The position numbers and the translations under genes are program-made. Source: a virus (taxonomy: Duplodnaviria; Caudoviricetes). Taken from it: a stretch of 64,000 nt of DNA. A model generated the notes under the pieces. That model made no database searches. It saw nothing but the letters and a program-made list of their open reading frames with translations, and was not told where the DNA came from. Numbering within the stretch: position 1 is the stretch's first letter; each line of letters starts with the position of its first letter. The stretch is from the IMG/VR virus record IMGVR_UViG_3300028886_000004, positions 1-64,000 of that record, one strand, 5' to 3'. Of this stretch, positions 17,735 through 55,526 are shown in pieces.

Positions 17735-17817
17735 GGGGTGTCTTTTTCAAAATATGTATCTATATTAAAGACATAAGGATGAGGCGATGTTGCCTCGCCA
17801 AACAAGGAAAGAAGATT
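17735..17817 (+). promoter_or_regulatory. conserved promoter cassette, copy 1
   Basis: GGGGTGTCTTTTTCA-N11-TATATT, leader hairpin, CAAGGAAAG RBS, AT-rich upstream tract. Confidence 0.85.
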
Positions 17818-20657: not shown

Positions 20658-20714
20658 GGGGTGTCTTTTTCAATCCACGAATGTATATTTTAGGTATACA
20701 ACCAGGAGTAAGAT
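20658..20714 (+). promoter_or_regulatory. conserved promoter cassette, copy 2
   Basis: GGGGTGTCTTTTTCA-N11-TATATT. Confidence 0.85.
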
Positions 20715-21516: not shown

Positions 21517-21849
21517 ATGGGAATCAAACTCATCAAGAAAACCAAGAAGGGCGAAGCCCTCCGCAACCTGCAAACCTTCAAAAAGGACCTGGTCTACGTC
21601 CCGGAGTTCACCAATGAAAAAGCGCTCACCGACCTCGTTTGGGACATTCACGCCCAGCACAAAAACGGTGAAGATGGCTGGGAAGGCGACGCTCAGAGCT
21701 TCTCTTCCGTTCCGCGTATAATGGAACTCACCGACTATCCGTATTTGATTGCGATTGGAGGCAGCCACACGCTGTTTGCCTTCCAGTCAAAGTCGGACCG
21801 CGACTGCATCCTTAGCGACTATCTCCGTGACCCGGACTTATTGGGGTAA
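21517..21849 (+). CDS. IKLIKK-leader protein 1
   Basis: MGIKLIKKTKKGE. Confidence 0.8.
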   Translation: MGIKLIKKTKKGEALRNLQTFKKDLVYVPEFTNEKALTDLVWDIHAQHKNGEDGWEGDAQSFSSVPRIMELTDYPYLIAIGGSHTLFAFQSKSDRDCILSDYLRDPDLLG

Positions 21850-21852
21850 ATT

Positions 21853-22275
21853 ATGGCAATTAAACTTATCAAGAAAGCCAACGAAGCCGACGTGAACAAA
21901 TTCGATGTGTCGGGCGTTATTGAAGACAGCAAGAAATTCGACTTCATCAACCTGCTCTCCCGCCTGAATCAATTCAAGAATTGGGCGGAGGAACTTCACG
22001 GGCTGGTCTACTTTACGATGCCGAAGATCCACGATGCGGCCAGCGGCTCCAGCGGCTACTCCTACCGCATCTCCAATGAAGACCGCTCCTCAACGGTTCA
22101 ATTCAGCCTCCACGCCGGAACCAATCCCGAACGCTACCCTAAGTTCGAGGGCTACATCTATGCCATCAGCCCGAAGGAAACCGGGAAGGACAAGCGCTTT
22201 GACATCAATTCCATTGATGACCTGACCGATGCCCTGCAAAAGGAAATTGTAGACATCTGTAAGGGGCGGACATAA
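21853..22275 (+). CDS. IKLIKK-leader protein 2
   Basis: MAIKLIKKANE. Confidence 0.8.
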   Translation: MAIKLIKKANEADVNKFDVSGVIEDSKKFDFINLLSRLNQFKNWAEELHGLVYFTMPKIHDAASGSSGYSYRISNEDRSSTVQFSLHAGTNPERYPKFEGYIYAISPKETGKDKRFDINSIDDLTDALQKEIVDICKGRT

Positions 22276-22371
22276 TTCGCATTTCTAGCGCGTTTACAGC
22301 CATATTTTAAGGCGGGTATGTATTTACCCGCCTTTTATATTTTCTCGCCTTAAAACGCGCTTTATGCGCAG
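22276..22371. terminator. bidirectional terminator / palindromic element
   Basis: AAGGCGGGTA-TGTATT-TACCCGCCTT between convergent genes. Confidence 0.75.
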
Positions 22372-24216
22372 CTAATACATCCCTCCGGCTATATGCTTGT
22401 CCGGATCTCCTTGGGCCATACCAAATATCAGGTCCTGGACATATTCCTGCCTGCCTCGCATGCTCAAATGCTGCGTCTCGCCGAGCTGGTCCACGATCGT
22501 TCCAGCCGAAAGGGATAGGGATGCAAGCAGCGCCTCGTGCTGGGATGCAGCCACGGCGTCCGCAATATCCTTGCTGCCTTTGACATAGCGCCCGTTGACC
22601 ATCACCTTATCGGGGTGGTCAATCTTCTTGTCCCGGTTTTCAAGGTGGCGGACCTCGAAATCAAGGATCGGGCTCTTCGGCACTTTCATAAGTCCGTGGT
22701 TGATGTTGGAGGCGAATTTCAGGTAGGGGTCCTTCGTGGTATCGACGGACACGTACTTGACATTGAAACCCATCTTATCCAGCATCTGTCTCATATCGGC
22801 GGATTGGAAGCCATCGGTGGAGACCTGCATAATGCAAATGCCTTTGTTGCGCAATTCAAGCAGGAACTGACGCACCTTCCACAAAGGGACTTCCGAACCG
22901 GGGCGGGCCTTGATGCCGAACGCAATCGGGGTAATGAGCGAGGGCGACAAGCGCAAGGTCTGTTCCCCGGTAACGAGGTTGCGCCCGGACACCGTCATTT
23001 GCTTTTCGATCGCGGACATTGCAAAGCCGAAGCGGTCACCTTTCAAGGCGCCGTCAAGGTGGACATAGTAATTGTATTTGGGAATTTCCTTGGTTACGAA
23101 ATCCATTATCTTGTCCGTGCCATCAATGGACAACGAAATTTCATCCTTTGAGATGGCATTGTCGAGGCATTGGACATTCACCCATTTCTCGACGTTATAG
23201 ATAAGGGACATCGAGGAGCGGTTGGCAACGCCAGCCAAGTCCATCAAGGCGCCGGGGAGGTTCTCCTCAAATTCCTCGCGGTAAACGTCCGGGACCTCGA
23301 TAATGTATCCGGCGTGCTCTTCCACTTCCTTTTCCGTGGTACATATCATCGGCTGCTGCGTATTCGTGCCGATGAAGACCGGGAATGTCTTGCCACTGTA
23401 AATTCCTTTTTCCTTTTGGACATCCCAAATGGCAGGCGCCAGCACAAGAACCTTCGGGTTATTCTTCACTGCCTCGATATGGGATTCAAGGAATGACGAA
23501 TCGCTATTGCGGGAGGAGACCAGCCAACGGCGGCAGGGAAGGGAGCCGTTCTTCAATTTGAAACGGGAGGACATACGGCGGGTGATGGTTTCATAGTTCT
23601 TAACCGCCTGATTGGCAACCGCTTCCTGAAAGTTTGCTTCATCAATGATGGCGCCGATGACTGCCTTACCCAAGTTATGACCGCCGCGGGATCCGAAGCC
23701 TACACCGACGTGGTGCGGGAACATATCCTCGTCCAGCTTCTCGCCCTTCTTCGGCATAAACCTTGAAGTAAAGAACGGGGAGGCCGCAATCACATCAAGC
23801 ATTTGGTTTGCCATAACGGCGGACGCCAAGTCCTTCGTGGCGGTGACCAGCGAGAAGAGGATACGGGTTGTCCTCAAGAGCTTGTATTTGCGTTGGGGCT
23901 CGCGCAGCAGGCACACGTGATAAAGGTCATACATTGCGCCCATAATGGCGAAGGACGTTTTACCGGCACCGATACATCCGGTCACGCAAATTTCCTCATA
24001 CGGGGAATAAAGGGGGTTCGGATAGATGCGGTGCAAGGCTTCGCGCCAGTATTCGTAAACGCCTTTTCCGTTGTCGTAGGTTTGCCCCAAATAGTAAGGG
24101 TCATTCAGGAACGTATCTATGTCCACGGGGACAGATTCATAACCTTCTGCCTTCGCGGTCAGTTCATAAAGCTCCCGCGTGGACAGTTTTGAATAGTCAG
24201 TAGTAGAAGTCTCCAT
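22372..24216 (-). CDS. terL: terminase large subunit
   Basis: Walker A GCIGAGKT, Walker B AIIDEA, nuclease VHLDG..GD, DGFQS, KDIADA; leaderless TATATT-N6-ATG. Confidence 0.9.
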   Translation of the reverse strand: METSTTDYSKLSTRELYELTAKAEGYESVPVDIDTFLNDPYYLGQTYDNGKGVYEYWREALHRIYPNPLYSPYEEICVTGCIGAGKTSFAIMGAMYDLYHVCLLREPQRKYKLLRTTRILFSLVTATKDLASAVMANQMLDVIAASPFFTSRFMPKKGEKLDEDMFPHHVGVGFGSRGGHNLGKAVIGAIIDEANFQEAVANQAVKNYETITRRMSSRFKLKNGSLPCRRWLVSSRNSDSSFLESHIEAVKNNPKVLVLAPAIWDVQKEKGIYSGKTFPVFIGTNTQQPMICTTEKEVEEHAGYIIEVPDVYREEFEENLPGALMDLAGVANRSSMSLIYNVEKWVNVQCLDNAISKDEISLSIDGTDKIMDFVTKEIPKYNYYVHLDGALKGDRFGFAMSAIEKQMTVSGRNLVTGEQTLRLSPSLITPIAFGIKARPGSEVPLWKVRQFLLELRNKGICIMQVSTDGFQSADMRQMLDKMGFNVKYVSVDTTKDPYLKFASNINHGLMKVPKSPILDFEVRHLENRDKKIDHPDKVMVNGRYVKGSKDIADAVAASQHEALLASLSLSAGTIVDQLGETQHLSMRGRQEYVQDLIFGMAQGDPDKHIAGGMY

Positions 24217-24306
24217 ACACCAAATATACGCCCATTGTGTCCTTTTAGGGTTTTCCGGGGTTGGCGCCTTGCGGGGAAATATGGTATATTTAATTCGAGG
24301 TTTTTT

Positions 24307-25386
24307 ATGGCAATTGAATTGAGCACCCCTTCTTTTAAGCCGCGTGAATACGAAGGCGAATACATTCGATACACCTTGTACGGACTGGATTCCGACGGGG
24401 ATGAATTGGACGATCTCATCACCTCCCCGAAAAAATCAACCGTGACCCATACCATCAAGGAGCTTCTCCCGGACTATGGCCGCGTTTACAATGGTATGCA
24501 CGTGGTTGCCATCCTTTATGACAAGAACGATCGTATGCTTAATTCGGAAGTCGTTTGGTCCACGGACCAAAGTGAATCGAATGGCGCCGACGAAACCATT
24601 GAATACGAAAAGGGACACAAAAATTCCCGCGGCGAAGATGCGCCGTGGGTTATCCGCGACCATAAGGGCGGAAAGGTCCTTGCATCGTTCCCGAGCGAAG
24701 ACGCAGCCAAGGCACATCTCGCCCGCATGAAGAATTATGCGAAAGCATCCAAGGACGAAAAACTTTTCAATGTGAAGGACCTGGAAGCGTATGCTATGAA
24801 CGGGTATAAGGCTGCTGTGAGTGCCGCTTGGTCCGGTGCCGGCGTGAAGAACTTCAAAATCGATATTCGCTCCTACGATGGGGAACCGCCTACGATTGAT
24901 GTCCTTCCCAAAACCTTGGATGGCAAGGACCTTGACGTGAACTGGCGCATCCTGCCGAAAATCTTTAAGATTGTGCAGTACTCGATCAGCCCGGTCGGCA
25001 ACAGCGACATTGAACGCGAAATGGATTACCGGACGGAAGATGATATTGAAAACATCTTCACGGACGAATTCAAAAACCTTGATGCCGTTATGGATGACGG
25101 CAAGCCTGCCAAGACTGAAACGGCTCCGGACGATTATGCAAGGGATAACTTCCTGAAAGGCGCCCTGGACTATGCCGAAATCGAGGATGATAAGGGAAAC
25201 GTTGTGCTTCTCAAAATCACCAAGCGCTATGCGAATGAGATTGGCGGGGATTTCTGCCTTCGTTCGTATGACGGCGAAACGGACAAGAGCCTTGCTATGG
25301 GCGGGATTCGTTACGTAGTCGACCGCTACGGGGAATTCATTGATATGGACCCCGCTGAAGCCATCATTAAAATTGCAAAGGAATAA
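24307..25386 (+). CDS. hypothetical modular protein (possible head-internal polyprotein)
   Basis: segments separated by GADE, SKDE, AKTE. Confidence 0.75.
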   Translation: MAIELSTPSFKPREYEGEYIRYTLYGLDSDGDELDDLITSPKKSTVTHTIKELLPDYGRVYNGMHVVAILYDKNDRMLNSEVVWSTDQSESNGADETIEYEKGHKNSRGEDAPWVIRDHKGGKVLASFPSEDAAKAHLARMKNYAKASKDEKLFNVKDLEAYAMNGYKAAVSAAWSGAGVKNFKIDIRSYDGEPPTIDVLPKTLDGKDLDVNWRILPKIFKIVQYSISPVGNSDIEREMDYRTEDDIENIFTDEFKNLDAVMDDGKPAKTETAPDDYARDNFLKGALDYAEIEDDKGNVVLLKITKRYANEIGGDFCLRSYDGETDKSLAMGGIRYVVDRYGEFIDMDPAEAIIKIAKE

Positions 25387-25391
25387 CGAAA

Positions 25392-25715
25392 ATGGGAATC
25401 AAACTTATCAAGAAAAAAGCGCCCGCCACCCTTTCGGAAAGTGGCCTGAACGCCCCCGCCAAAAATGAAGGGCGCGTAACGTCCTATTTCGTGGTCCGCA
25501 AAGACGCGGACGAAAAGGCAGTCGAAAAGATTGTTGCCACGCTGGAAGATGCGATTCTCAATAATCAAACGGTTGAAACCACCGCTAACCCGGACGGCAC
25601 CGTTTCGATTGATATCTATGGCAGGATGACCCCGGACGAGGTTGCCCGCGCACTCCAGCTTCCCGGACAACTTAGCACATCTTACGTCGATCTCGCAATC
25701 AATATCGAGGGCTAA
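25392..25715 (+). CDS. IKLIKK-leader protein 3
   Basis: MGIKLIKKKAPATLSE..AKNE. Confidence 0.8.
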   Translation: MGIKLIKKKAPATLSESGLNAPAKNEGRVTSYFVVRKDADEKAVEKIVATLEDAILNNQTVETTANPDGTVSIDIYGRMTPDEVARALQLPGQLSTSYVDLAINIEG

Positions 25716-25716
25716 A

Positions 25717-26169
25717 ATGAGCACAAACGATTTTCGCGGCTATTACTTGGATGTATGGATTGGGCTGACCAAGGACCACAAGTTGTCCTCCGCAGAAGCC
25801 GACCGCCTTTGTGACAAATACAAGCAAATCATTATCAATGGTTTCGAAGAAGGCGAAGGACCGGTTAAAATTTCCGACCAGCTTGCCACGCAAGACAAGC
25901 GCGAGGCACATGAACCGGGGACTAAGTGGTCCGCCGGAATCCGTGTTGCCTTCAATGGCGAAAACGACGCCAACGACAAATGGGTCAAGGATTATGAAGG
26001 CCAATCGGTTTGGAATTTCTTCGATGATCTTTCCGACACGCTTCCGCCCCGCGAGGCATTGAAATGTATTCCGGCCCGCTACAAGGATGCTTTCAAGGAT
26101 TACTGCATCTACTACGGGATGAAATGGCCGGAAGATAATTCTAACCAAGGAGATACCGCCAATGCCTAA
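25717..26169 (+). CDS. hypothetical protein
   Basis: GAGG RBS. Confidence 0.7.
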   Translation: MSTNDFRGYYLDVWIGLTKDHKLSSAEADRLCDKYKQIIINGFEEGEGPVKISDQLATQDKREAHEPGTKWSAGIRVAFNGENDANDKWVKDYEGQSVWNFFDDLSDTLPPREALKCIPARYKDAFKDYCIYYGMKWPEDNSNQGDTANA

Positions 26170-26797
26170 AATCAAAATGATTGAGGCGGCTCGCCCCGCC
26201 GAGGACATTGTCATCCGTGGTGGGAATCACCACATGAAGCCGGACAGCATCTATATCCGCATCCCCCGTAAAAAGCTCGTTGAACTGGGCTTTTTGAAGG
26301 ATGGCGAACTGCCGAACGACAGCACCGCAAGCGCCGTGCGCCGTGCCTTGAAATTCGATATCAAGGCGGTCCCGGATACGCGCTTTGGCGGGAATGACTA
26401 CTACCTGACCATTTCTATCGGGGACATCTCCGAGGAATACTACCTTGAAGAATACTGGTATACCCAGCAGGGTTCGTCCTTTGAAAATTGGCTGCGCAAT
26501 ACACATCTCACGATCCGTCCGGAAGAACCTTGGGAACGCAAGTCGGAAGCAGTGCTTAACCGCATTACGATGCACGACGCGCGTAAAAAGTGCGCCGCCC
26601 TCCAAAAGTCCGGGAAGCTGTCCAACTGCCTTCACGAAGTCACGGCGGCCATTGCGTTGGTCCAAAACGCCCTCGCAAACAGCAGCCCGGAAATCAAGGA
26701 CAACACCTTGAATTCCACGGAAAAGAAAATTGTCGCACGAGCTGTGTTGGCTGAGATTGTTTCCAATTTCAACTACCAGCCGGAAGATTTGAGGTAA
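26162..26797 (+). CDS. MPKIKM-leader protein 1
   Basis: MPKIKMIE; AAGGAG RBS. Confidence 0.8.
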   Translation: MPKIKMIEAARPAEDIVIRGGNHHMKPDSIYIRIPRKKLVELGFLKDGELPNDSTASAVRRALKFDIKAVPDTRFGGNDYYLTISIGDISEEYYLEEYWYTQQGSSFENWLRNTHLTIRPEEPWERKSEAVLNRITMHDARKKCAALQKSGKLSNCLHEVTAAIALVQNALANSSPEIKDNTLNSTEKKIVARAVLAEIVSNFNYQPEDLR

Positions 26798-26976
26798 CGA
26801 AGGGGACTCAGTCCTTTCGGGCATCGTCAGCGAAAATTAGGTTGGGTAGCCAAACAACCCGCATAGGTGCACGCTCTCGGCGACGGGGGCGTGTATATTA
26901 TTGTATACTTGGTTTTGGCAGAAAATAAACCTATATTTAAGAAAGGGCTACGCGCCCGCCAAAACCCGAGGGCACC

Positions 26977-28869
26977 GTGCAACAGTATTTTGACCATTTT
27001 GCTTTAGCCAACAAAACCATTCAGGAACGCTTGGGTGCGGCGCCTAATGCGCTCAACAAGCTGTCCGCGTTGTATGGTATGCAGGCACGCGGCTTTGTCC
27101 AAATGATGTCTTTCGGCGATGATATGATCACCGCCAGGGCCGCTTCCCACCTGCTTAATATGGACATCCTGAGGGCGAACGATGCCTACCTCCTCAAATT
27201 GGGAGAAGGTTTCCTCCTCAACTCCATTGAAAGTATCACCCCGCCGTTGATTCATGCGGGGAATGAATTTCTCTTCAAGTCCGTCCGCCAGTATGGTCTC
27301 TACGATTCCGTAGGCTCCGTGACGCTGCGCGATGGATCCGCCGCCAACCTGCTCCTCTACAAATTTGAGGCGCTCGATGAAACCACGGCGGACGGCGAAC
27401 AGAAGTATCAGGCATTGTATTGCGCCGGCCAGTATGTCACGCAAGACTTTACCACCGATGATATTGACCTGACGCCGGGAACCTTCCAGTCGATTTACGT
27501 GCCGGAAACATATAAGGCCGTTTGGACCCCTTCCGTGCGCGTGTTCCTCGATGGCATTGGAACGGATGGCAAGGCGAAAGAGGTCACGCCGATTTACTCG
27601 ATGGCGGAACTCCTCGCATACACGGACCGCGATTGGCTGGTTCTTTGCCAGCATACAGGTCGCGGCTTGACCATCACCTTGGGCGATGGCGAAGTGTATG
27701 GCGCCGGATACAACAACAAAAAGACCTTTGCAAACATCACCGCCGTGAAGGTTGCCTATATCAAGACGGACAGCCTTTCCGAAGCAGCCAACGAAACGCT
27801 GCAGTTCAACGACGATGTCACCCCGCTTTACGCGGACAAGCTCCCGGTTCTTGATAAGCCGAGCACCGGGGACACCACGGAAACATTCCGCTCCCGCGCA
27901 ATCGCCGAGATGTTTGCTTCCGGGAAGATTACCGACGAAAAGGACCTTGTCACGGAAATCAAGAAGATTCCGCTGATTCGTTCTTGCGCAGCGCATCGCG
28001 AACAAAACCGCCACTTCCCCGTAAGCGAATACAAGCCCGGCGTGATTTATCCGCACGGGTCTATGGTGGAGTTTGGAGGCGCCCTGCTTGTTGTTGTCAA
28101 GAAGGACAAAGGCACCGAGACGCTGCCTCCGGATGACCCCGAAAGTTCTTGGCAGGTGATTGTGCCTGCCGAAATCTATGCGGGTCTCAAGGCTATGGGC
28201 TTTGACGCCGAATCTGCGTTCCGCTATGACAATGCCACGATCGTGCTTTCCGGCCTGATGGTGGCTAACCGCCGTTACTGGTCGGAGAATCATACCTATG
28301 GTCCGGGGGACATTATCTATCATCCCGGCACCAATAAGCTGTATGTAGCTACCGCGAATGTGCGCGGGCTGGAACCGGGCGCCGACGTTGACCCCGAATC
28401 CGGCTATGCGGAGGATACGTGGGTTTCTCAGGAAGATGTTGAAACCAATTCCAAGTATTCCGCATACCGCATTGATGACTACGTGCCAATCACGCAGGCG
28501 GCCTACGAGCTGGAATTGAAAGGCTACTTCGGCATTGCATCCAAGCTCGGATTCACGTCCGTGGTGGTGGAGCCGTGCGTATCGGTCCCGGTTGAAATTT
28601 CTTACTCCTATGACGGCGCCCATCGCGAGAACGAGGAGATTACGCGCTTCATTCAGGAATACGCCTGCTACAATGTTGGCAAGACCTTGCTTGCCTCCGA
28701 ATTGCATTCCCTCCTGACCGAGAAATTCGGGCTGACCAAGGTGTACATTTCAATGGGACGTACGGGCGAAGGCGGCGCCAACACGAGTTTCGGTCCGCAG
28801 GTACAGCTGGCGACGCGGGAGTATATTTCAAAAAGCGATTTGGCGGTTACGCCGCGTGAGGTGCTCTAA
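26977..28869 (+). CDS. baseplate wedge subunit (T4 gp6/baseplate J-like) with CBM5/12-like insertions
   Basis: ITLGDGEVYG, ETFRSRA, KITDEKDL are gp6-like motifs; Y..G..V..G aromatic modules. Confidence 0.7.
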   Translation: MQQYFDHFALANKTIQERLGAAPNALNKLSALYGMQARGFVQMMSFGDDMITARAASHLLNMDILRANDAYLLKLGEGFLLNSIESITPPLIHAGNEFLFKSVRQYGLYDSVGSVTLRDGSAANLLLYKFEALDETTADGEQKYQALYCAGQYVTQDFTTDDIDLTPGTFQSIYVPETYKAVWTPSVRVFLDGIGTDGKAKEVTPIYSMAELLAYTDRDWLVLCQHTGRGLTITLGDGEVYGAGYNNKKTFANITAVKVAYIKTDSLSEAANETLQFNDDVTPLYADKLPVLDKPSTGDTTETFRSRAIAEMFASGKITDEKDLVTEIKKIPLIRSCAAHREQNRHFPVSEYKPGVIYPHGSMVEFGGALLVVVKKDKGTETLPPDDPESSWQVIVPAEIYAGLKAMGFDAESAFRYDNATIVLSGLMVANRRYWSENHTYGPGDIIYHPGTNKLYVATANVRGLEPGADVDPESGYAEDTWVSQEDVETNSKYSAYRIDDYVPITQAAYELELKGYFGIASKLGFTSVVVEPCVSVPVEISYSYDGAHRENEEITRFIQEYACYNVGKTLLASELHSLLTEKFGLTKVYISMGRTGEGGANTSFGPQVQLATREYISKSDLAVTPREVL

Positions 28870-29567
28870 TGGCAGAAAAGAAAATAATCTACGACTTTGA
28901 AACGGTCCTCAGCATCCTTGTGAAGTCTCAGGAAGATTTGATTGAGATTGTCACCAAGTGGAGCGCGATGTTGGACACCACCCCGCGTTATGTGGAGTTC
29001 AATTTGTCCGGCAGGGATCAGCCGCTCGTAGTGCCGAACATTCAAATGGTGGTTGATACCTTGAACGAACGCTCCGTCCCGAACGACCTCCGCGTTCATA
29101 GCGTGGTCACCTCCACGCTTGGCGGCGCTGGAGAGTTCAATGCAGGGCACGTCAAATTCGAAGGCTCGGGCGTCCGCACGACTTATGGCAACTACGGCAT
29201 TGAAGGCGCCGCGTGGCATGTCACCAACAGCATTGCGGCAACCCCCGGTTTGAAGACGTGGCCGCTGCCTCGCTATTGGGTGCACTCCGGCTCCGGGGAA
29301 AATATGGAATTGGATATCCACCTCGGCATCAATTCGCAGCTTCCCCGCTCAGGCACGTTCGCGGTTAGCGAGTTCTATGTTTTAATCGGCGACTCCCGCA
29401 AGATTATGAACATCTATGGCGTTGACCCCGCCGGAAGCCGCTATGCAAAACTTACGCTCACCACGGCCGGAAGAACCGGCGCCGTGATGTGGCACGTTAT
29501 CGCCGTGGCAAACAACCCCGAACGCGGCAACTCCTATCTCACGCTTTACGCAAACATTATGGAATAG
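28869..29567 (+). CDS. putative tail/baseplate appendage protein
   Basis: coupled to baseplate gene; shared N-terminal KW..LD module. Confidence 0.6.
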   Translation: MAEKKIIYDFETVLSILVKSQEDLIEIVTKWSAMLDTTPRYVEFNLSGRDQPLVVPNIQMVVDTLNERSVPNDLRVHSVVTSTLGGAGEFNAGHVKFEGSGVRTTYGNYGIEGAAWHVTNSIAATPGLKTWPLPRYWVHSGSGENMELDIHLGINSQLPRSGTFAVSEFYVLIGDSRKIMNIYGVDPAGSRYAKLTLTTAGRTGAVMWHVIAVANNPERGNSYLTLYANIME

Positions 29568-29571
29568 ACTT

Positions 29572-30693: not shown

Positions 30694-30707
30694 CGGCGAG
30701 GTGTTGA

Positions 30708-31931
30708 ATGCTTTTGGATACCGAAACCGCAGTTAAAATCGCGCATGATATTATCCACGACGCCGAGGAGTTCTTTGATAAATGGCCGCGTCTTTTAGAC
30801 ACTAAGGAGGAGGCGCCCGAAGGCTATGTCGATTTTGAATTTTCCGATGGCAGCCTCATCCGCATGCCTTGCTCTTGGCAGGCGCTTTTGTTTGCGCAGG
30901 GCGCCGAAAGACAGAAACTCGAATTCAAACGCGGCGGCACAACCGTAACGTGGCAGCCCGGATCTGTAGTGGCTGCCCGCGGATCCATTGAAGGACTTGT
31001 CTCCGATGGTCCGGTTGCCGTGGACAACCTCATTACGGAATCTATCCTCGGAATCAGTAATGGGACAACTTCCAGTGTTGAAATTGTGAAGGGACAGTTT
31101 GATGCGATCACCGCGATGGCGATTATCATTGCGGCATCCGTGATTGAAAAGTTGACCGTGAATAACGATGCAACCATCACCGGCGGCAAGTTTGAGAACC
31201 TGCTGGCAGGCGGGGAAGGCTACATCGATGCGGATGTTGAAGAATGGGGCGGCGATTCGATTGAGGTGGAAGACCTTGTCACGTCCGGCGAGCAATACGT
31301 TGCGGTTGAAAAGATGAATGCTTGGACGCAAGGCTCCCCGCTCGCGCCGACCACCGATGCCAAATACACCGGGACCATTCCATTCCTCCCGCTCAACGAA
31401 AAAGCCCTGCCTATCAATGGCTTTGACAACCCGCTCGAATCCAACCCGTTCTTCCCGGACTGGTTCTATACATGCAACCAGGACGGCCCCTACAATCCGC
31501 ATTATGCTTGGGTGCCTTCGCTTACAAAGCCTTCGAAGCCTGCTTGGCGGGATTCGGACGGCATTTATTGGTATCAGGCAAAGGTGACGTGGGATGTCAG
31601 CATGTTCGGCACGGTGAATATGATTTATCCGCCGCGTTGCCGCACCGAGGATAACTACGACTATGTTCTCCCGCCGGTGCCTGCTGCGGCGGATGGGCTG
31701 GTCATTACGGTTCAGCAGCTGGACGATTCCTTTGTTCCGTATACTACCGGGGACCGCTACGAATACCGGAACGAGAACGAATGGTATTGGTATCCGGGTC
31801 GTGCCATTCAGGTGAGAGGGCCTGCCCTTACTCAGTTTGTCCTCAAGCGCGTGTTCACCGTTGTAAACGGCGCAATCACTGCGGTTGAATATCAACTCCT
31901 TCCGTTGGGGGATGTAAATGGGCGTACTTAA
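30708..31931 (+). CDS. putative tail spike/fibre protein
   Basis: shared N-terminal module; beta-helix-like middle region. Confidence 0.6.
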   Translation: MLLDTETAVKIAHDIIHDAEEFFDKWPRLLDTKEEAPEGYVDFEFSDGSLIRMPCSWQALLFAQGAERQKLEFKRGGTTVTWQPGSVVAARGSIEGLVSDGPVAVDNLITESILGISNGTTSSVEIVKGQFDAITAMAIIIAASVIEKLTVNNDATITGGKFENLLAGGEGYIDADVEEWGGDSIEVEDLVTSGEQYVAVEKMNAWTQGSPLAPTTDAKYTGTIPFLPLNEKALPINGFDNPLESNPFFPDWFYTCNQDGPYNPHYAWVPSLTKPSKPAWRDSDGIYWYQAKVTWDVSMFGTVNMIYPPRCRTEDNYDYVLPPVPAAADGLVITVQQLDDSFVPYTTGDRYEYRNENEWYWYPGRAIQVRGPALTQFVLKRVFTVVNGAITAVEYQLLPLGDVNGRT

Positions 31932-34797
31932 TACTTCGTATACCGCTTCGCAATATGCAGTTGTATCCAAGAACAGGGACTACATTGTCTTGCGCGTCTT
32001 GGATGATTCCTTGTATAGCACCTATTGGAAAGAATTTCTGTCCGCGAAAGTGAACGCGGGCCCGACTCCTCCCGGTCCGAAGGTGAAGCCGATGTATTTG
32101 CGCCTCGAGCAGGTGCCGCCGGAAACCACCCTTGTGGACCAGTATGCAAATTTCATACCGGAGCTTCCGCTCGTAACCATCGAGATGGATGGCGAGCGCA
32201 TCAACGTGACCGATCGTATCACGGCGAATACGCCCAATACGGAGGTTCCAGGGCTGTTTCGTATCGATTACCGCATAAATCTATCCCACGAGTTTTCATC
32301 GCCTATTTGGGCCGTTTATGTCTCAATACAACAGCGTCCGATTTTGCGAAAGGCCGCCGCGGGCTGGGTGCGCGATAGCTATGTGATTCAAACGCTCAAC
32401 CGCCTTGTGATGGAACCGCAGTTCTTGGAAGCACTCCACGCCGCGGGCGAACCGCTTTACGGCTTTATGGAGGCCAACCAGCATCCGTCCGTAAGGGCCT
32501 CGAATCTCTACAAATATGAAGGGCTGGAAGCGTGGGGAGCTGGCGGCGCGTTTAACGACCACTCCAACGGCATCTTCATCACCGGGCTGAAACTTCCGCA
32601 AGGCTCCATCGTCATCTATCAAAGACGGATGCTCCAGCTTCGCGAGCCCGTTTGGCCGGATCCGGTCGGCGCCTTCCATCATATGGATCCGCTGACCCAC
32701 GAGCGCACCCCGGATGCCTATTCCAAGGGTAGCGTCGTGCGCGATGGAGATTCCTGCTACATTTGTATCAACGAGGCCAATTCCGGTATTCCGATGAGCA
32801 ACGCGGACTACTGGCGCAAAGGCTATCTCTACAAATTCAATGTCCTTAACGGCGACGATGATTTCAGGTTGCCGCGTGGGCGCCTGCCAGTCGGCAAAGG
32901 CGGCGTGGAACATATTTGGATTACGGTGGACAACCAGGGCTATTCGTTTTGGGTGGACATCGCCAACCAAACGTCCATCGGCACATATCGCGGATACTAC
33001 GACCGCAAGCACTACGCCGACTACGGCACCGGGGATATGGTCACCTATATCTCCGAGGATGCCATCAAATTGTTCAAGCGCAAGGCCACGGACATTCAGG
33101 GGCAGGATACCTTGATCTACCCGCCGGGACATCATCTCAACCCCGCTTGGGATGAGGTCTTCGCCAAATTCCCCGAGGAGCACCAGCCGCTGTTCTCCGA
33201 TTACTTTATTGTCCCGCATACCAACGCGTCGAACGCTGTTCTTGCAAAAACGTGGACAGTGTCGGAAGAGATGTGCGAGGCCTACGGGAATATGATGGGT
33301 ATTCCTCCGCTGATCGTGAAGGAGTGCGGCGCCAAGTGGTCCGCATTGCTTTTCGCATTGCTGTCCCGCACACGCAACACCTTTGAAGGACTCCGCGTTT
33401 GCTTCCGGGCGGTTGGCTTGGATGTGGAGAATCTCCGCTTGTCCGATCCGTCCCTCAAATACCTGTGCAACCCCGATGGCGACGGGCTGGAAGAGGTTGA
33501 TGACGTTTACACGCAACACGAGAATCTCCGCAGGCTCATTGCGAACATTGATTCGCTGGCGCCTGAGGGCAAAGAAAAGGCGGAAGAGGGTTGCCTCCGC
33601 TATGTTACCGAAAATACAGAAGGCGCCGATTCGAAGGACATCAATGTTGCCATCCAGCAATATTCGGAAGCGGATGGCGGCTGGGTTACGCGCTATCGCT
33701 TTGAAAGGATTGAGCCGGCACAGAATTTCAATAACCGCTACTACAAAGGCGATTTGAATGTGCTGGCACGCCTCGCCGAGGATGCAGTTGCCGATTTGGG
33801 CGATGGACATACTTGGGTGAAGGAGTCCGCTTGGGCAGGCAACCCGTCGGCGCTCGTTGCCGAATGCCTTACCTATGAAATTCCTATCTACATTTTCCTC
33901 CGCCTCAAGATTTGGCTCTATGCGGAAAACCGCATTGAAATGCAGGGCTTCGTTTATTCCGGACTTTGCGATGGTCAACGCGGCGGCGCCAAGAATGTGA
34001 TTGAATTGTTCCCCTCGCGCTACTTCAGCCGCGTTGCCCACAACTTCGTTGATGTGGAAACCGGGGTGTTCATTAAGGAGAATGACGGCTGGACCGAAGT
34101 GCAGCCTACGCGCTACAATGAGGAACGCGGTTCCAAAATCTATGAATTCAATGGAATGGTGAATCCGCTCCGCATTATGGCGGTGGACCCGGACAATGTA
34201 TCGTTTGTCCGCTATTGGCAATCGACCCACACGTTCGGCCTGCTCGGGCTGGCGGATTCCACATCGACCGTTAACGAAGTCCCCTTCTTCAACGATGCGC
34301 ACTTCCATAACGTGACCGACCCGGACATTACGGACGAAACCGAATTGATGCTTATGAATGGCTATGTCGGGGTCACGGCATTGTATCGCCCGAAGGAATT
34401 GCACGCGCTCGCATCCGCCCGCCGCTGGATGTATGTTCTCGGCGAGGAGGACTCCGAGGAGAAGTGGGAATTGAGCAACGACGTTGCCTTCGCGGACTTT
34501 GCCGATATCGAGTCCACGGCCATCTATCCGTTTGAAGGGGATGCGGCTTCCTTGAAGGCTGCTCTCAACTACGTCACGGACGGGGAAGGCAATCGCCTTG
34601 ACTTTGAATGGGATGGCGATGAATTGGTCTTCCACGACATCTTCCCGGATGCCATCTACCTGAGGGACAGCGACGGGGTTATCCTTGGCGCCTACGCCTT
34701 GGTGGCCGGACAATACACATTGACGCAGACCGATTACGACCACTACCGCACGGAAACTCCCTGCACATCTGTCCGCATTGGTTTTTCCTACGAGTAG
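31918..34797 (+). CDS. large baseplate/tail protein with CBM5/12-like modules
   Basis: 959 aa; YSKGSVVRDGDSCYIC..YW module; RNTFEGLRVCFRAVG resembles wedge gp7/P2 I KGT..G motif. Confidence 0.6.
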   Translation: MGVLNTSYTASQYAVVSKNRDYIVLRVLDDSLYSTYWKEFLSAKVNAGPTPPGPKVKPMYLRLEQVPPETTLVDQYANFIPELPLVTIEMDGERINVTDRITANTPNTEVPGLFRIDYRINLSHEFSSPIWAVYVSIQQRPILRKAAAGWVRDSYVIQTLNRLVMEPQFLEALHAAGEPLYGFMEANQHPSVRASNLYKYEGLEAWGAGGAFNDHSNGIFITGLKLPQGSIVIYQRRMLQLREPVWPDPVGAFHHMDPLTHERTPDAYSKGSVVRDGDSCYICINEANSGIPMSNADYWRKGYLYKFNVLNGDDDFRLPRGRLPVGKGGVEHIWITVDNQGYSFWVDIANQTSIGTYRGYYDRKHYADYGTGDMVTYISEDAIKLFKRKATDIQGQDTLIYPPGHHLNPAWDEVFAKFPEEHQPLFSDYFIVPHTNASNAVLAKTWTVSEEMCEAYGNMMGIPPLIVKECGAKWSALLFALLSRTRNTFEGLRVCFRAVGLDVENLRLSDPSLKYLCNPDGDGLEEVDDVYTQHENLRRLIANIDSLAPEGKEKAEEGCLRYVTENTEGADSKDINVAIQQYSEADGGWVTRYRFERIEPAQNFNNRYYKGDLNVLARLAEDAVADLGDGHTWVKESAWAGNPSALVAECLTYEIPIYIFLRLKIWLYAENRIEMQGFVYSGLCDGQRGGAKNVIELFPSRYFSRVAHNFVDVETGVFIKENDGWTEVQPTRYNEERGSKIYEFNGMVNPLRIMAVDPDNVSFVRYWQSTHTFGLLGLADSTSTVNEVPFFNDAHFHNVTDPDITDETELMLMNGYVGVTALYRPKELHALASARRWMYVLGEEDSEEKWELSNDVAFADFADIESTAIYPFEGDAASLKAALNYVTDGEGNRLDFEWDGDELVFHDIFPDAIYLRDSDGVILGAYALVAGQYTLTQTDYDHYRTETPCTSVRIGFSYE

Positions 34798-34851
34798 TGC
34801 GCCTGCTTCTTCTGTTTATGTATATTTGAAGATGGATTAAATGGTAGAGCT

Positions 34852-35088
34852 ATGGGCATCAAACTTATAAAGAAAAAAACCGAGGCAAGCACTTCCGTAG
34901 GCGAGTTTCAGGCAATTCTTGATTCGCTGGCGGGGCTGTATGCCAATGACGTTCAATTCAAGTATGACGGCGACCAAAAGGTGGTGGCGGTAACTAAAGG
35001 GGACAAGACCATTGGAACTGTCCGTGCCGAAGGTGCCCTTCACACAATCATTTGGGCGACGCTGAGCCTTGCGGAGAAAGAAGCGTGA
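34852..35088 (+). CDS. IKLIKK-leader protein 4
   Basis: MGIKLIKKKTE. Confidence 0.8.
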   Translation: MGIKLIKKKTEASTSVGEFQAILDSLAGLYANDVQFKYDGDQKVVAVTKGDKTIGTVRAEGALHTIIWATLSLAEKEA

Positions 35089-35096
35089 TAGCGATT

Positions 35097-35939
35097 ATGA
35101 CAAATCAAGGCGCCCTTGAAGTCGGCCGCTCCCTTTCCGGGGGCAGTCGTTTTCTTGCTTGGGAAGCCGCTCTCCTCAAAGAGAACTTCGATGGCGAATC
35201 CGTCGATCAGGTGGCAAATATCACCTCCGACGATATAAGCCTCGGCGCCGGATTGATTCACGGCAAACAAATTGTCCATACATTTGAATGCACCGGTTCC
35301 CTGCCGGTTCAGGTCTCCTCCGAGGATGGCGGGACCGAAGTGAAGGCGATGGCGGTTGATTTCGATTTCAACGGCCAAGTCCCTATCGAAGAGGGATCCA
35401 GCTCCAGCAGCGGCAGCGGCGCCGGGAACACCTCCCTGGAATACTCCGCCGTTGTGGCTCTTGCCCGCCGCTACTCCAAATATCAAACGGTTGCCCCGGG
35501 GAGGACCTATAACGTAGGCGACCACGTTTGGCTTCCCTATGAAGCCGACCCCCAGCGCACGAAGGCGTATGTCTGCCTTACGGACGGATTCGTATACGCC
35601 GGCGTCCTGCCTAGCGAGGACACGGAGCATTGGATGGAAACATCCACTGAAACGTTGATTAACTATCCCGGCGAGCCCGACTTCTATTGCGACCCGAACA
35701 GCGACATCATTCCCTTCTTCGTTACCTCCTACGACGACCCCGTCACGATGGCAAATGGTATGGAATGGGAATACAAGGTCCGCGTCTTCTTGGACAATGT
35801 GGTTACGACCAAATTGTCCGAGCTCAAGTATTTCTCAAAAGGCGGGCTGGAAGTTAACGGCAGCCTGATGCTCACATTCCTTGCGAACACCGCCGAGATG
35901 TTCCGTGCCATCCGAGAAAAAGTTTCAACCGCTTCCTAG
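35097..35939 (+). CDS. putative tail-fibre attachment/collar protein with CBM5/12-like module
   Basis: MTNQG N-terminus typical of tail-collar domains; TYNVGDHVW..YVC..P....HW. Confidence 0.5.
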   Translation: MTNQGALEVGRSLSGGSRFLAWEAALLKENFDGESVDQVANITSDDISLGAGLIHGKQIVHTFECTGSLPVQVSSEDGGTEVKAMAVDFDFNGQVPIEEGSSSSSGSGAGNTSLEYSAVVALARRYSKYQTVAPGRTYNVGDHVWLPYEADPQRTKAYVCLTDGFVYAGVLPSEDTEHWMETSTETLINYPGEPDFYCDPNSDIIPFFVTSYDDPVTMANGMEWEYKVRVFLDNVVTTKLSELKYFSKGGLEVNGSLMLTFLANTAEMFRAIREKVSTAS

Positions 35940-35951
35940 CGAGGTTCTTTT

Positions 35952-36515
35952 ATGCCGAAAATCAAAATGCTTGAAAAGCTGTCCCCCTATAAGGTAACCT
36001 ACTTGGCGGACAGACCGGGCGAGATTGGCGCCAAGCTCTATGCGAAAAAAGTTTTTGCCGGCAACGACCGGGATGCCGTTATCACTTTCAACAACTGGTT
36101 TGATACCTGCAAGTCCTTCCCCGAAGGTTCCTCTTGCGACATTCAAAAGGTCGAATTGATTCAAGGCGAAAGCGCCAACAAGTCCTACACATTTACTTGG
36201 TGGGACAACGAGCCCACCGCCGACCGCCGCCCCACCACGAGGGCGGATTTGAAAAATTGCCTGCACAAGGAAATTTTCCTTGCCGTCGATGATGCGGAAG
36301 CGCTGAAGCTGGCGATGGAATATCTTTGCGATTACACCGGCGATGACCCCGAGGATGTTGCCGACACGCCGGAAAAGATTTGGGACCACTTCAACAGCGA
36401 TTGGGGCTCCGGCGATCCTATTCCGATGGTCCTCAAGCAGCGCAGCCGCGTTGTCAAGGATTCCGGCTTCAATCCAAATCGCGAAGACGACGAATCCAAG
36501 CACACCAAAAAGTAA
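35952..36515 (+). CDS. MPKIKM-leader protein 2
   Basis: MPKIKMLE; GAGG RBS. Confidence 0.8.
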   Translation: MPKIKMLEKLSPYKVTYLADRPGEIGAKLYAKKVFAGNDRDAVITFNNWFDTCKSFPEGSSCDIQKVELIQGESANKSYTFTWWDNEPTADRRPTTRADLKNCLHKEIFLAVDDAEALKLAMEYLCDYTGDDPEDVADTPEKIWDHFNSDWGSGDPIPMVLKQRSRVVKDSGFNPNREDDESKHTKK

Positions 36516-36528
36516 AGGACAGCATATT

Positions 36529-37794
36529 ATGGGAATCAAACTTATCAAGAAAACAAACGAGTCCTTTGAATCGGACTTGGAAAACATTGCGCAGACCAGC
36601 GGCGAAATCGAATACGATGACGCCTGGAAATTGAATCGCTCCGCCGCCAAGGATCCGGAACTCCGTAAAAAGGTCCGCAACCTGATTGGCGATTGGCGCA
36701 GCGCCGCCGAGGACGAGGACAACGATGAAATGACAAAGGCCGCCAAGGCGCTCAAGGCATTGGCGGATTCCCTGCCTAAGCAGGAGGCGCGTATGCACCT
36801 CGGCCGCTGCGTAAACTGCCACGGCGGATGGACCAAGACCAATTACGTCGATGAACTGGAACCGGACGTTCGCAAATACTTCAAGGGAATAGGCTTCGCG
36901 GATAACGACGACGTTTGCCCCAAGTGTGTTGCGGCGGTGAAAAAGCATCTCGCGCAGGGCAAGGCCGAAGGCGCCACCTATGACGAATATGTGGACGCGG
37001 TTGCAGCCAGCCTTGAAGATGACTTTGAATACAGCCCGATTACGGCGCTTGAATTTGCCCGCGATGATTTCAAGGACATCACAAAGGCCTTCTACAGCGC
37101 TACCAAGACCCCGAAAGAAGCCGCAAAGGAAATTGACGCCAAGTATATGGGCGAAGGCCGCAAAAAGGCCGAAGGTCACGAAGGCTGGGACGATTGGGAA
37201 GAAGTCGAAGGGCTGGAAGAATCCATTGAAGGAATTGAAAACCTCGCCTACGAATTGCGCCACTGCATTCGCGGCGCCAAGACCCATTGCAAGGATTGGA
37301 AGTCCCTCGCCCTTTACATCAAGGGACTTGCATCCAACCTTGACGATGCCGCCGAATTGATGGCATACAAAACGGACAGCGATGACGATGATGAATCCGC
37401 AAATGAATCGGACAATCCCGTAGGCGAACTCTTTGATGCCTTGAAGCAGGCGCTTGCCGGAAAGGGCTACAAGGTTTCGCAGTTCACCTCGGACAAGGAA
37501 TTTGTCGGACAGAAGAAGGCTTTCGACGGCATAAGCATCGAAAGTGAGGACCCCGACGCGTACCACAAAAATCCGTACCGCATTGTCCTTGATACGGATG
37601 ACAACCTCTTCCGCATCTTCTTCCCCGGGGTTCGCCGCAAATCCGTAACCGGACAGCCCGGCAGCATTTCGGGCATTGTCAAATTCATCTTGCGCGACCT
37701 CAATTTGGATGAATCCAAGAAGAAGAAAAACCCGAGCAAGGATTTTTCGTCCACTGTTGAAGAGGACGAAGATGGCAGAAAGAAATCTCACTAG
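36529..37794 (+). CDS. IKLIKK-leader polyprotein-like protein 5
   Basis: MGIKLIKKTNE; junctions PKQE, GKAE, KKAE, SANE; one CxxC..CxxC segment. Confidence 0.82.
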   Translation: MGIKLIKKTNESFESDLENIAQTSGEIEYDDAWKLNRSAAKDPELRKKVRNLIGDWRSAAEDEDNDEMTKAAKALKALADSLPKQEARMHLGRCVNCHGGWTKTNYVDELEPDVRKYFKGIGFADNDDVCPKCVAAVKKHLAQGKAEGATYDEYVDAVAASLEDDFEYSPITALEFARDDFKDITKAFYSATKTPKEAAKEIDAKYMGEGRKKAEGHEGWDDWEEVEGLEESIEGIENLAYELRHCIRGAKTHCKDWKSLALYIKGLASNLDDAAELMAYKTDSDDDDESANESDNPVGELFDALKQALAGKGYKVSQFTSDKEFVGQKKAFDGISIESEDPDAYHKNPYRIVLDTDDNLFRIFFPGVRRKSVTGQPGSISGIVKFILRDLNLDESKKKKNPSKDFSSTVEEDEDGRKKSH

Positions 37795-37802
37795 GAGTTT
37801 TT

Positions 37803-38141
37803 ATGCACATCAAACTTATTAAGAAAACAAGTGAAGCCGCCCGAGACCTGGAAGCAATTCGTGCCAAGTTTTGCGACAATCCGGATCTCGCCAAAATAGG
37901 GTGCCTCACCGAGCCTTATGAAGGCAACGCCATTTTTGGAACACAGACTTGGAGCGATGGCGTCCCGATTACAAAACACTGGCATCGGGATAACAAAAGC
38001 CAATGGGTGTCCCTTAAAAAGGGAACGCGCTGCATCGCATTGCTTGATCAGGACGGCGGGGAAGTTGAGGCCGTTTGGATTCCATACCGCAACGGATGGC
38101 TCCGTGTGGATGGCAGCGACATCGAAGTAAATTTTAACTAA
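37803..38141 (+). CDS. IKLIKK-leader protein 6
   Basis: MHIKLIKKTSE. Confidence 0.8.
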   Translation: MHIKLIKKTSEAARDLEAIRAKFCDNPDLAKIGCLTEPYEGNAIFGTQTWSDGVPITKHWHRDNKSQWVSLKKGTRCIALLDQDGGEVEAVWIPYRNGWLRVDGSDIEVNFN

Positions 38142-38157
38142 AACACCGAGGACTATT

Positions 38158-39693
38158 ATGGGAATCAAACTTATCAAGAAAACAAACGAGGCTGCCTACA
38201 CGGCGGTCAAGAATCCGAAGCAGGCCGCTTTCATCATTGATTGCGGTTCCCCGGAAAAGGCAAAGGAATTGAACGATGCCTTCTCGGTCTTAGCCGAAAA
38301 GGTGTTGGACCGCGATGACAAGGAAGCGGGAGACGCAATCGGGCGAAACGTTATTATGTTTTATGATGTCGGCCCCTTCTTCACCGCCTGCGTCGATCCT
38401 TGTGACAAGGCAGCCGCGTGGTGTGAAGAATGGCTCCGCAATTCCGGCGGCGCAGCACCTGCTATTCAGGGCAATTCCGCCGGGCTGGAAAGCAAGGCAA
38501 ACGAGGATGACGTAGGCGCCCGCCTCCGTGACATTCTCAACGGCAATGACGTTTGGTCCGAAGTGAGCGGCGGCGATAACGATTCGCTCGTGGACAACAT
38601 CCTTGACGGCGATTGGATTGGCTTGATGTGCGGACCGAACAGTGACGACGCTGCCGATTGGGATGCCTACATCAAGGACACCTTCGGTTCCTTCAAGCAG
38701 TATGTTGAAGCCGAATGGTTCTCCCCGGATGAAAATGACCCGAACTTCAAAACTGTCCACATCAAGTTCAAGCCGCGTTTCGCCCTTGGCGATAAGGAAA
38801 CGCAGACCAGCGTTCTCAGCCAGCTCGGCGACAAGATCGCGGATGGCTACTTCGCTATGGCGGAAAAGCGCCACGAGGCGCTGTCCCCGAAAATGCAGAA
38901 GCGTCTTAAATTGAAGGCGTGGCAGGACAACTCTGTGAAAATGAAAGGCTTCGATGAAGCCGGTTACTCGTTCCTCGATTTGTATGAGGACGGCAAGTGC
39001 GACACAATCGCCGTCCCTACCAAGGGCTATCAAACCGAAAAGGAAGCGCTCGACGCCGCAAAGAAAATCTTTGACGACTTTGACGAATACTTCGAAGTGA
39101 CCGCCCACTTCGATGAAGAAGGCGGACCGGATGGCGAAGCCGTGTGGTTCCCTGCCTACGGATTGAAGAAGACCTTTGTGGACCTCCCGGAAGGCGAAGG
39201 GCTGGAAGTTCTCTCGGAACTCTCCGATGTCCTCTATCGCCTGTATACAAAGGGCGAGTCCGCAAGCGAAGACCGCCGTGGCACGGACCGCTACGGACAC
39301 CACGTCAAGCGCTTCACTACAAAGGACCTGAAGGGCTTGGATGGCGATGGCGACGCGGCTGGCGACAATGGTGGCAACGGCGCCGATGCGGGAACGGGAG
39401 CGGATGACAAGTTTGGTCTTGCCTATATGGACACGACTTCGATTTCCGCGTTCTCCAACAACTTCAGCACCAGCGAGCGCGACAACTTCCTGCACGACCT
39501 CGCCCAAATGCCGGTGTCCAAGAAATCGATTGAGGACCTGCTCCGCAAGCACAAGCTCCACAAATACGGGCGTGAGGTTGGAGTCCGCGACTTCTTCCCG
39601 GACAACGGAATCGCCTACCTCGGAACATATGGCGATGACGGCCTCCCGTATAAGTCGCTGTACCTCAAGTGGGGTCCGGCGCTGAAGAAATAA
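38158..39693 (+). CDS. IKLIKK-leader polyprotein-like protein 7
   Basis: MGIKLIKKTNE; junctions KANE, KRHE, SASE. Confidence 0.82.
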   Translation: MGIKLIKKTNEAAYTAVKNPKQAAFIIDCGSPEKAKELNDAFSVLAEKVLDRDDKEAGDAIGRNVIMFYDVGPFFTACVDPCDKAAAWCEEWLRNSGGAAPAIQGNSAGLESKANEDDVGARLRDILNGNDVWSEVSGGDNDSLVDNILDGDWIGLMCGPNSDDAADWDAYIKDTFGSFKQYVEAEWFSPDENDPNFKTVHIKFKPRFALGDKETQTSVLSQLGDKIADGYFAMAEKRHEALSPKMQKRLKLKAWQDNSVKMKGFDEAGYSFLDLYEDGKCDTIAVPTKGYQTEKEALDAAKKIFDDFDEYFEVTAHFDEEGGPDGEAVWFPAYGLKKTFVDLPEGEGLEVLSELSDVLYRLYTKGESASEDRRGTDRYGHHVKRFTTKDLKGLDGDGDAAGDNGGNGADAGTGADDKFGLAYMDTTSISAFSNNFSTSERDNFLHDLAQMPVSKKSIEDLLRKHKLHKYGREVGVRDFFPDNGIAYLGTYGDDGLPYKSLYLKWGPALKK

Positions 39694-46741: not shown

Positions 46742-47140
46742 ATGGGGCTCTTTGATGGCATCTTCTCCCGGAACCAATACAAGCAGGATCTTGCGCAGTG
46801 GATTGTGGACCACAACAATCGTGCCTACCTTGGCATAGGTCCGTTGTCCACCCATAGCGTGGACTACTACTATTTTGATTGCACCGTGGGGGAGCTGGAA
46901 GGAAAGAAAGATCATATGGAGGAGATGCACCGGAAGTATGAATACGACAAGGCGCATCCGGAACCGAAGATCGGGGACACCTACACCGTTTACATTTGCG
47001 GCCGCCAGGTGGACACCTTGAGAAATGTCACCAACGTTTCGTATAATGATAGAGGTGTCTTTTTCACTATAACGTCGAAGGAAGGGAAAGTGTCCCTGAA
47101 GGAATACTTCGGCGGGAACATTAACTGGAGGAAAGGCTAG
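46742..47140 (+). CDS. hypothetical protein
   Basis: AGGAGG RBS. Confidence 0.7.
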   Translation: MGLFDGIFSRNQYKQDLAQWIVDHNNRAYLGIGPLSTHSVDYYYFDCTVGELEGKKDHMEEMHRKYEYDKAHPEPKIGDTYTVYICGRQVDTLRNVTNVSYNDRGVFFTITSKEGKVSLKEYFGGNINWRKG

Positions 47141-55450: not shown

Positions 55451-55526
55451 GGGGTGTCTTTTTCAAATCAAGTAGTTATATTTAGGGTATGAGGCGCCGG
55501 GTAGGCGTCCAGCCAAGGAAAGACAT
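55451..55526 (+). promoter_or_regulatory. conserved promoter cassette, copy 3
   Basis: GGGGTGTCTTTTTCA-N11-TATATT, GGCGCC hairpin, CAAGGAAAG RBS. Confidence 0.85.

Follow-up and report, generated by a model that had tools for sequence, protein, structure and literature searches.

Bacteriophage T4 uses a capsid-targeting sequence (CTS) to bring its internal proteins into the scaffolding core (PMC3012670, PMC5694885). The CTS is found on IPI to IPIII, Alt and gp24, and the prohead protease gp21 afterwards cleaves it off (PMC3012670, PMC5694885). The internal proteins of T-even phages are diverse and have only the CTS in common (PMC3012670). Here we describe a candidate leader of this kind in IMG/VR record IMGVR_UViG_3300028886_000004, a complete viral record of 134,991 bp with direct terminal repeats, whose first 64,000 nucleotides (nt) form the window that we analyzed. 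In this phage, which is uncultivated and known from its genome alone, one peptide heads a scaffold-position protein and at least 12 otherwise unrelated open reading frames (ORFs). We consider it probable (about 0.72) that this leader is a propeptide for capsid targeting, similar to the T4 CTS in its mode of action but not in its sequence. ORFs are named below by their start positions in the record.

Processing by related enzymes has been described in other phages. All characterised enzymes of the gp21 family cut C-terminal to Glu (PMC5694885). In the giant phages phiKZ, 201phi2-1 and SPN3US, propeptides are cut by gp21 homologues at S/A/G/T-x-E (PMC5694885, PMC7411985). In staphylococcal phage 80alpha, the scaffold and the capsid protein have L27-mimic leaders that are cut at a Phe/Ala site by the host protease Prp (PMC5744158).

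The first-pass annotation of the window had proposed a family of nine leader ORFs with dissimilar bodies. All nine were present at the claimed starts, on the plus strand (Table 1), and pairwise BLASTP among them gave no match at E<0.01. In a six-frame scan of the whole genome, we found seven copies of the class-1 motif, M-x-IK-[LMIV]-I-[KE], and two copies of the class-2 motif, M-x-KIK-[ML]-[ILV]-E. Since the copies fall only at the starts of these ORFs, chance is excluded as an explanation for where the motifs lie. The family is nevertheless larger than nine and extends beyond the window. The core pattern alone added one match, 86925, and looser scans of start codons brought the additional members to four (86925, 100845, 101394 and 80701), each with a ribosome-binding site. 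A Shine-Dalgarno-like box is present at 8 of 10 leader starts, and public gene calls use the same Met as the start in 34 of 38 homologues of 38158. No PHROG or Pfam family matched any of the nine candidate cargo proteins, and a literature search for the leader string returned nothing relevant.

Relatives were collected by degenerate leader-pattern scans of viral and metagenome contigs and by look-ups of protease homologues. A contig was counted as a relative only if it was matched in tblastn by leader-trimmed proteins of this genome; a scan of viral contigs with the major capsid protein (MCP) found no relatives. The resulting set comprised 62 leader ORFs, with 47 distinct leaders and 16 body families. 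A Glu residue lies within 10 residues of the core in every distinct leader (47/47), and in 43 of them it is followed by Ala, Ser or Gly (E-[A/S/G]). Where the octapeptide occurs by chance in unrelated contigs, the Glu is there in only 5 of 12 cases and E-[A/S/G] in 1 of 12, while the other N-termini of this genome, taken as background, had them at 40% and 11%. Asp did not precede the Glu in any of the 47 distinct leaders. The Glu itself moves between residues 8 and 16 and is kept across all relatives despite insertions and deletions. The consensus leader thus consists of Met, one or two residues, Ile-Lys, two aliphatic residues, usually Lys-Lys, a spacer of 0 to 8 residues, Glu, and then Ala, Ser or Gly. 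It is basic, with a charge of +2 to +5.

The leader codons vary synonymously, and the codon differences given in the first-pass annotation were correct, as were the 33 identical nt common to 36529 and 38158. Within this genome, leader DNA is more conserved than the peptide requires, so duplication or recombination has spread the leaders. Leaders of relatives show synonymous changes together with conservative swaps (Ile to Val; Leu to Ile or Phe; Lys to Arg, His or Asn), in which selection at the level of the peptide is visible. Moreover, the zinc-finger module of 36529 recurs in relatives, where it stands behind a class-1 leader in one and behind a class-2 leader in another (P0097, P0118).

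If the leader is a propeptide, a prohead protease and a scaffold with the same leader should be encoded in the genome, and both had been named in the first-pass annotation as things to look for. A protease gene lies in a head module beyond the window. Its assignment to the gp21/S77 type is backed by PHROG, homologues, profile, hhalign and fold. About two dozen of the listed homologues of the protease, mostly at 49% identity or less, carry PF03420. A profile built from 54 family members matched the T4 gp21 structure 5JBL at 4.9e-7, and hhalign of the protease with T4 gp21, read from the T4 genome, gave a probability of 96%. All 54 sequences have His88 and Ser142/143, which line up with the catalytic His and Ser-Ser-Arg-Gly motifs of T4 gp21. 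The AlphaFold model of the protease (pLDDT 81) had 5JBL as its best Foldseek match (probability 1.0, TM 0.68-0.70), followed at much weaker scores by herpesvirus assemblins. A Glu188-Ser189 pair, invariant or nearly so, lies in a low-confidence linker just past the catalytic domain, a position that would suit the C-terminal self-processing described for the gp21 family (PMC5694885). A direct Pfam scan of the genome for S78 gave no match.

The order protease, 86925, MCP is the order of T4 genes 21-22-23, and 86925 sits where T4 has gene 22. The product of 86925 is an acidic protein (pI 4.5) with a high content of Ala, Lys and Glu; its position and composition alone make it the putative scaffold. 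It has both the core and the Glu, and the core with E-[A/S/G] is kept in 49 of 49 homologues, down to 45% identity, including those in which insertions or deletions move the Glu. Conversely, the leader is absent from the replication modules; its presence on non-structural early genes would have spoken against a role in the head. Together, the gp21-type protease, the leader on the scaffold-position protein, the conserved Glu and the absence from replication modules support the capsid-loading interpretation put forward in the first-pass annotation; all the computational checks proposed there turned out in its favour.

The candidate cargo genes are exchanged rapidly. Even where flanking genes are 95-100% identical from phage to phage, the contents of the slots are not the same. 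The slot after 20715 holds two or three leader genes, including some with bodies missing from this genome. In this genome 24307 is followed by a gene of 107 amino acids (aa), in one relative by a gene of 228 aa, and in others by genes of 252 aa and 241 aa. An extra 187-aa gene follows 35097 in one relative. Two in-frame fusions have lost a leader. One of them is 24307, a product of a deletion, in which residues 1-270 match the N-terminal part of a 599-aa protein of relatives and residues 266-359 match the C-terminal module of the leader-bearing 252-aa cargo protein. The other is a 396-aa ORF of relative L017 that fuses a 36529-like part to the body of 37803. Homology between 36529 and 37803 was considered and rejected: this fusion ORF is what links them, and the two have no BLASTP similarity in this genome. 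Cargo swaps and leader-removing fusions match the picture known from T-even phages (PMC3012670).

The inferred mature cargo proteins are mostly acidic. The AlphaFold model of the largest, 38158 (pLDDT 71), has a disordered leader (residues 1-20), three domains and two disordered linkers, both of which hold leader-like Glu sites (near residues 117 and 367). The ESM Atlas had nothing for 38158 or 36529, and comparison of the 38158 model with Foldseek PDB, BFVD and VIA-align found nothing informative; its domain 1 has only a generic ferredoxin-like fold (Z <=7). Cargo bodies and head proteins show a modest enrichment of leader-like sites (z ~2; ~2.4 for cargo bodies), which neighbours and replication proteins do not share. 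Since this enrichment is weak, we did not adopt a polyprotein reading, and internal cutting of cargo at linker sites is only possible.

According to the mechanism that we propose, the basic, disordered leader would dock each protein onto the assembling core. After closure of the shell, the protease would cut behind the leader Glu, releasing a peptide of 8 to 16 residues and leaving the mostly acidic mature proteins inside the head. These would then exit with the DNA at infection. Some of the large cargo proteins may also be cut at their linker sites.

The resemblance to T4 concerns the arrangement rather than the sequence. In both phages, an N-terminal peptide of 10-20 residues that ends at Glu plus a small residue is common to unrelated proteins, a gp21-type protease is encoded, the order is protease, scaffold, MCP, and the scaffold has a tag-like N-terminus. 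In both, moreover, the leader is identical in DNA between paralogues and the cargo loci are hypervariable; as a control read from the T4 genome, a stretch of 30 nt is identical between ipII and ipIII, and the N-terminus of gp22 resembles the CTS. T4 tags only a handful of proteins, whereas about 12 are tagged here, of up to 511 aa, mostly acidic, in several clusters and with two leader classes that are interchangeable. Its kinship with T4 is only distant: the MCP and the protease of this phage fall below Pfam thresholds. The giant phages also have gp21-family cutting after Glu, many processed head and ejection proteins, some multi-site propeptides, and paralogues (gp53 and gp54) with identical N-terminal 15 residues. 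However, their propeptides are mostly 80-160 residues long and heterogeneous, without a single short leader across many unrelated proteins, and they have no known scaffold counterpart, whereas here the scaffold-position protein is tagged. In phage 80alpha, too, a short N-terminal leader that the scaffold has in common with further virion proteins is removed, and Firmicutes are the likely host group in both cases; 80alpha differs in its host enzyme Prp and Phe-Ala site, compared with a conserved Glu, no Phe-Ala and the phage's own gp21-type protease here. The leader system is a well-supported analogue of T4-type targeting; what is new is the leader sequence and a large cargo of no assigned function.

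Several observations weigh against a capsid-targeting propeptide. The leader has no residues in register with the T4 CTS and is basic where the CTS is acidic, so it is an analogue of the CTS and not a member of it by sequence. In three leaders (35952, 100845 and an ORF of L086), the Glu is followed by Lys or Asp. Position P3 of the Glu site is mostly Lys or Thr, which differs from the preference of Leu or Ile reported for T4. The giant-phage enzymes prefer S/A/G/T at P3 (PMC5694885). Direct Pfam scans of the genome missed the protease, with no match for S77, and gave no match for a T4 portal, so that the portal was not identified. The codon of the first Lys (K4) is AAA in 10 of 10 leaders, compared with 29% AAA genome-wide, and with Lys codons fixed in this way part of the leader identity within the genome reflects shared descent or recombination. 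The promoter-like elements described below (a TATATT box with its upstream element) are not limited to leader genes but stand before non-structural genes and RNA genes as well, and this promoter class is therefore no proof of late timing. Finally, the phage is uncultivated, and only its genome has been read.

Other explanations share part of this evidence. The leader could be a head-assembly tag shared with the scaffold that is not removed or is cut elsewhere, with the tagged proteins acting as minor scaffold or core components, broken down and lost from the head during maturation, and not as cargo for the host. This would agree with the same tag on the scaffold, with the acidic character of both the scaffold and the mature tagged proteins, and with the modest enrichment of leader-like Glu sites in cargo bodies (z ~2.4) and their location in disordered linkers. 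We nonetheless regard it as unlikely. Among near-identical phages the cargo genes vary strongly and can be dispensed with, as assembly factors usually cannot; moreover, their products are predicted to have folded multi-domain bodies, and the internal-site enrichment is weak. The conservation of leader DNA beyond the needs of the peptide raises the further idea of a shared 5' coding segment without any sorting role, either an A-rich, unstructured translation-initiation region or a cassette recombination linker, spread by duplication and recombination. The fixed Lys codons, the 33 nt shared by 36529 and 38158, and the cassette exchange and in-frame fusions at or near leaders are all what it would produce. 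Yet the peptide pattern persists in scaffold orthologues and distant clades although their codons differ and residues have been replaced conservatively, and an effect on mRNA leaves the invariant Glu plus small residue at variable spacing, and the lack of Asp, unexplained. The chance octapeptides found elsewhere mostly have no such Glu-small site, and the proven T4 CTS is itself identical in DNA between ipII and ipIII. We give this explanation very little weight.

A different destination or partner for the leader, such as the tail or baseplate, a membrane, a chaperone or a modifying enzyme, has precedents in the Prp/L27-mimic leaders of Firmicutes phages and in radical-SAM recognition tags. 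The main cluster does lie among large unannotated genes that could encode tail or baseplate proteins, and the likely hosts of related phages are Clostridia, where Prp exists. The only leader-bearing protein with a positional identity is, however, the scaffold, which is a head component, and this alternative seems to us just as improbable as a segment without a sorting role. Two specific forms of it were excluded: a Prp/L27-type leader, because the Phe-Ala pair (Prp site from PMC5744158) is absent from all leaders, and a radical-SAM recognition tag, because the sole radical-SAM gene, at 111.3 kb near the QueC/GTP-cyclohydrolase genes, is more than 9 kb from the nearest leader ORF.

The surroundings of the leader ORFs are only partly recognizable. 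Replication genes (DNA polymerase, helicases and clamp) occupy positions 1-15 kb. The first-pass annotation had placed the leader genes among neck, terminase and baseplate genes. The terminase part held, as tblastn identified a large terminase subunit within the cluster, about 36% identical to TerL of Ralstonia, Thermus and Rhizobium myoviruses; the neck and baseplate labels found no support, as none of the neighbours at 15091-35939 had a match in PHROGs or Pfam. A tail sheath gene, a UvsX-like gene and a UvsY-like gene are encoded outside the window, which, going by predicted genes, makes the phage a very divergent myovirus with some T4-type modules.

Some further features were noted in this genome and its relatives. 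In relative L035 (10553-13843), the terminase frame is an ORF of 1096 aa, compared with 614 aa here, a difference that points to inserted sequence (for example, an intein or a fused gene). Three adjacent ORFs lie upstream of the head module (L001, genome 80701-83748); 80701 and 82228 have a common domain (BLASTP 1.7e-13), while 81835 and 82228 start with M/V-[YF]-[VI]-KKKYE before Ala, which may be another leader variant. Pfam matches of relatives' orthologues identified a QueC-like gene (genome 74449-75147) and a GTP cyclohydrolase I-like gene (84820-85512), and the radical-SAM gene (111301-112020) is taken as putatively QueE-like from its N-terminus; together these genes point to a 7-deazaguanine DNA-modification pathway. 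Distant relatives of 190-214 kb (L061, L062 and L135) have IS605 OrfB/TnpB (Cas12f-like), Y1 transposase and reverse-transcriptase-like genes among their head and fibre genes.

Promoter-like elements precede several of the gene runs (Table 1). On the plus strand of the whole genome, TATATT occurs 59 times, compared with about 22 expected; on the minus strand it occurs 19 times. It often lies 20-45 nt before start codons (window examples are 24285, 26932 and 34821), and a box of the same type lies 38 nt before scaffold gene 86925. A 14-nt element, GGTGTCTTTTTCAA, has six plus-strand copies in the window with at most one mismatch, compared with 0.03 expected, and more copies lie near genome positions 102040 and 105510. 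At least five copies stand about 10-12 nt upstream of a TATATT box, and the two elements look like a two-part phage promoter class. Many TATATT copies have no upstream element and may therefore be a -10-only promoter class.

Table 1. Leader ORFs, head genes and other features of the phage genome. Positions up to 64,000 lie in the window; a slash follows the leader Glu or marks a fusion junction.
Feature	Position	Strand	Remarks
Leader ORF, 110 aa	21517..21849	+	M-G-IKLIKK..KGE/A; relatives' orthologues keep Glu though linker length changes
Leader ORF, 140 aa	21853..22275	+	M-A-IKLIKK-ANE/A; orthologues 44-84% identical in relatives, all leader-bearing
Leader ORF, 107 aa	25392..25715	+	Leader end ..TLSE/S; hypervariable slot
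Class-2 leader ORF, 211 aa	26162..26797	+	MPKIKMIE/A; 92-100% identity in relatives, truncated variants exist
Leader ORF, 78 aa	34852..35088	+	..KKKTE/A; TATATT box 31 nt upstream
Class-2 leader ORF, 187 aa	35952..36515	+	MPKIKMLE/K
Leader ORF, 421 aa	36529..37794	+	..KKTNE/S; acidic, CxxC..CxxC module
Leader ORF, 112 aa	37803..38141	+	M-H-IKLIKK-TSE/A; L089 orthologue begins MGIKLIHKHNE/A
Leader ORF, 511 aa	38158..39693	+	..KKTNE/A
Leader ORF, 373 aa	80701		MHINFVVQQNE/A; outside window
Head maturation protease	85823-86854		phrog_207 match at 6e-17
Leader ORF in scaffold position, 166 aa	86925-87425		MSIKILKK..KSE/S; between protease and MCP, outside window
Major capsid protein	87444-89144		Weak matches to major head protein families
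Leader ORF, 179 aa	100845		MPKIKLIRANE/D; outside window
Leader ORF, 158 aa	101394		MAIRMIHKNE/A; outside window
Leaderless gene from deletion fusion	24307..25386	+	Junction ..AKTE/TAP..
Large terminase subunit	22372-24216	-	Opposite strand, inside leader cluster; tblastn E down to 1e-104
Tail sheath	92683-94926		Outside window
TATATT box	20684..20689	+	Ahead of run 20715, 21517, 21853; GGTGTCTTTTTCAA upstream element at 20660-20673
TATATT box	24285..24290	+	22 nt before 24307; heads run 24307, 25392, 25717, 26162
TATATT box	34821..34826	+	Heads run 34852 to 39693
GGTGTCTTTTTCAA copies	17737-17750, 20660-20673, 47054-47067, 55453-55466, 60558-60571, 63362-63375	+	

Leaders of another wording accompany more distant proteases. 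In a clade with a 68% identical protease, the leaders MAKIKLVKNE/A and MKINLVSKTNE/A are found next to the protease gene. In a 214-kb phage with a 48% identical protease, 6 of 19 translated genes around the protease start with M-x-K-(M)-x-I-[KRS]-[VL]-[HK]-E followed by Ala or Ser, and a 191-kb relative has the same leader type. Thus, in the clades with 68% and 48-49% identical proteases, the leaders are recurrent, end in E-[AS] and adjoin the protease. A broader scenario, which we offer tentatively and consider less likely to be right than wrong, is that clade-specific leader codes co-evolve with the protease in 120-220-kb uncultivated myoviruses of rumen/gut type. There they would load a large, fast-exchanged arsenal of at least 12 proteins, some of them multi-domain chains cut at linker Glu residues, to be injected as takeover or anti-defence effectors.

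If the tag works as proposed, it would provide a listing, read from sequence, of proteins in the head of an uncultivated phage. The T4 CTS has already been used to load foreign proteins into capsids, and the leader, used together with the protease that matches it, would add a second and orthogonal tag for this purpose. The related but distinct leaders in clades with diverged proteases would make it possible to follow, in nature, the co-evolution of targeting signal and protease specificity. The cargo set is larger and more modular than that of T4 and, lacking recognisable folds or families, represents a pool of unknown functions. If the reading is true, these head proteins would be the first phage products to reach the host, which would make them prime candidates for counter-defence.

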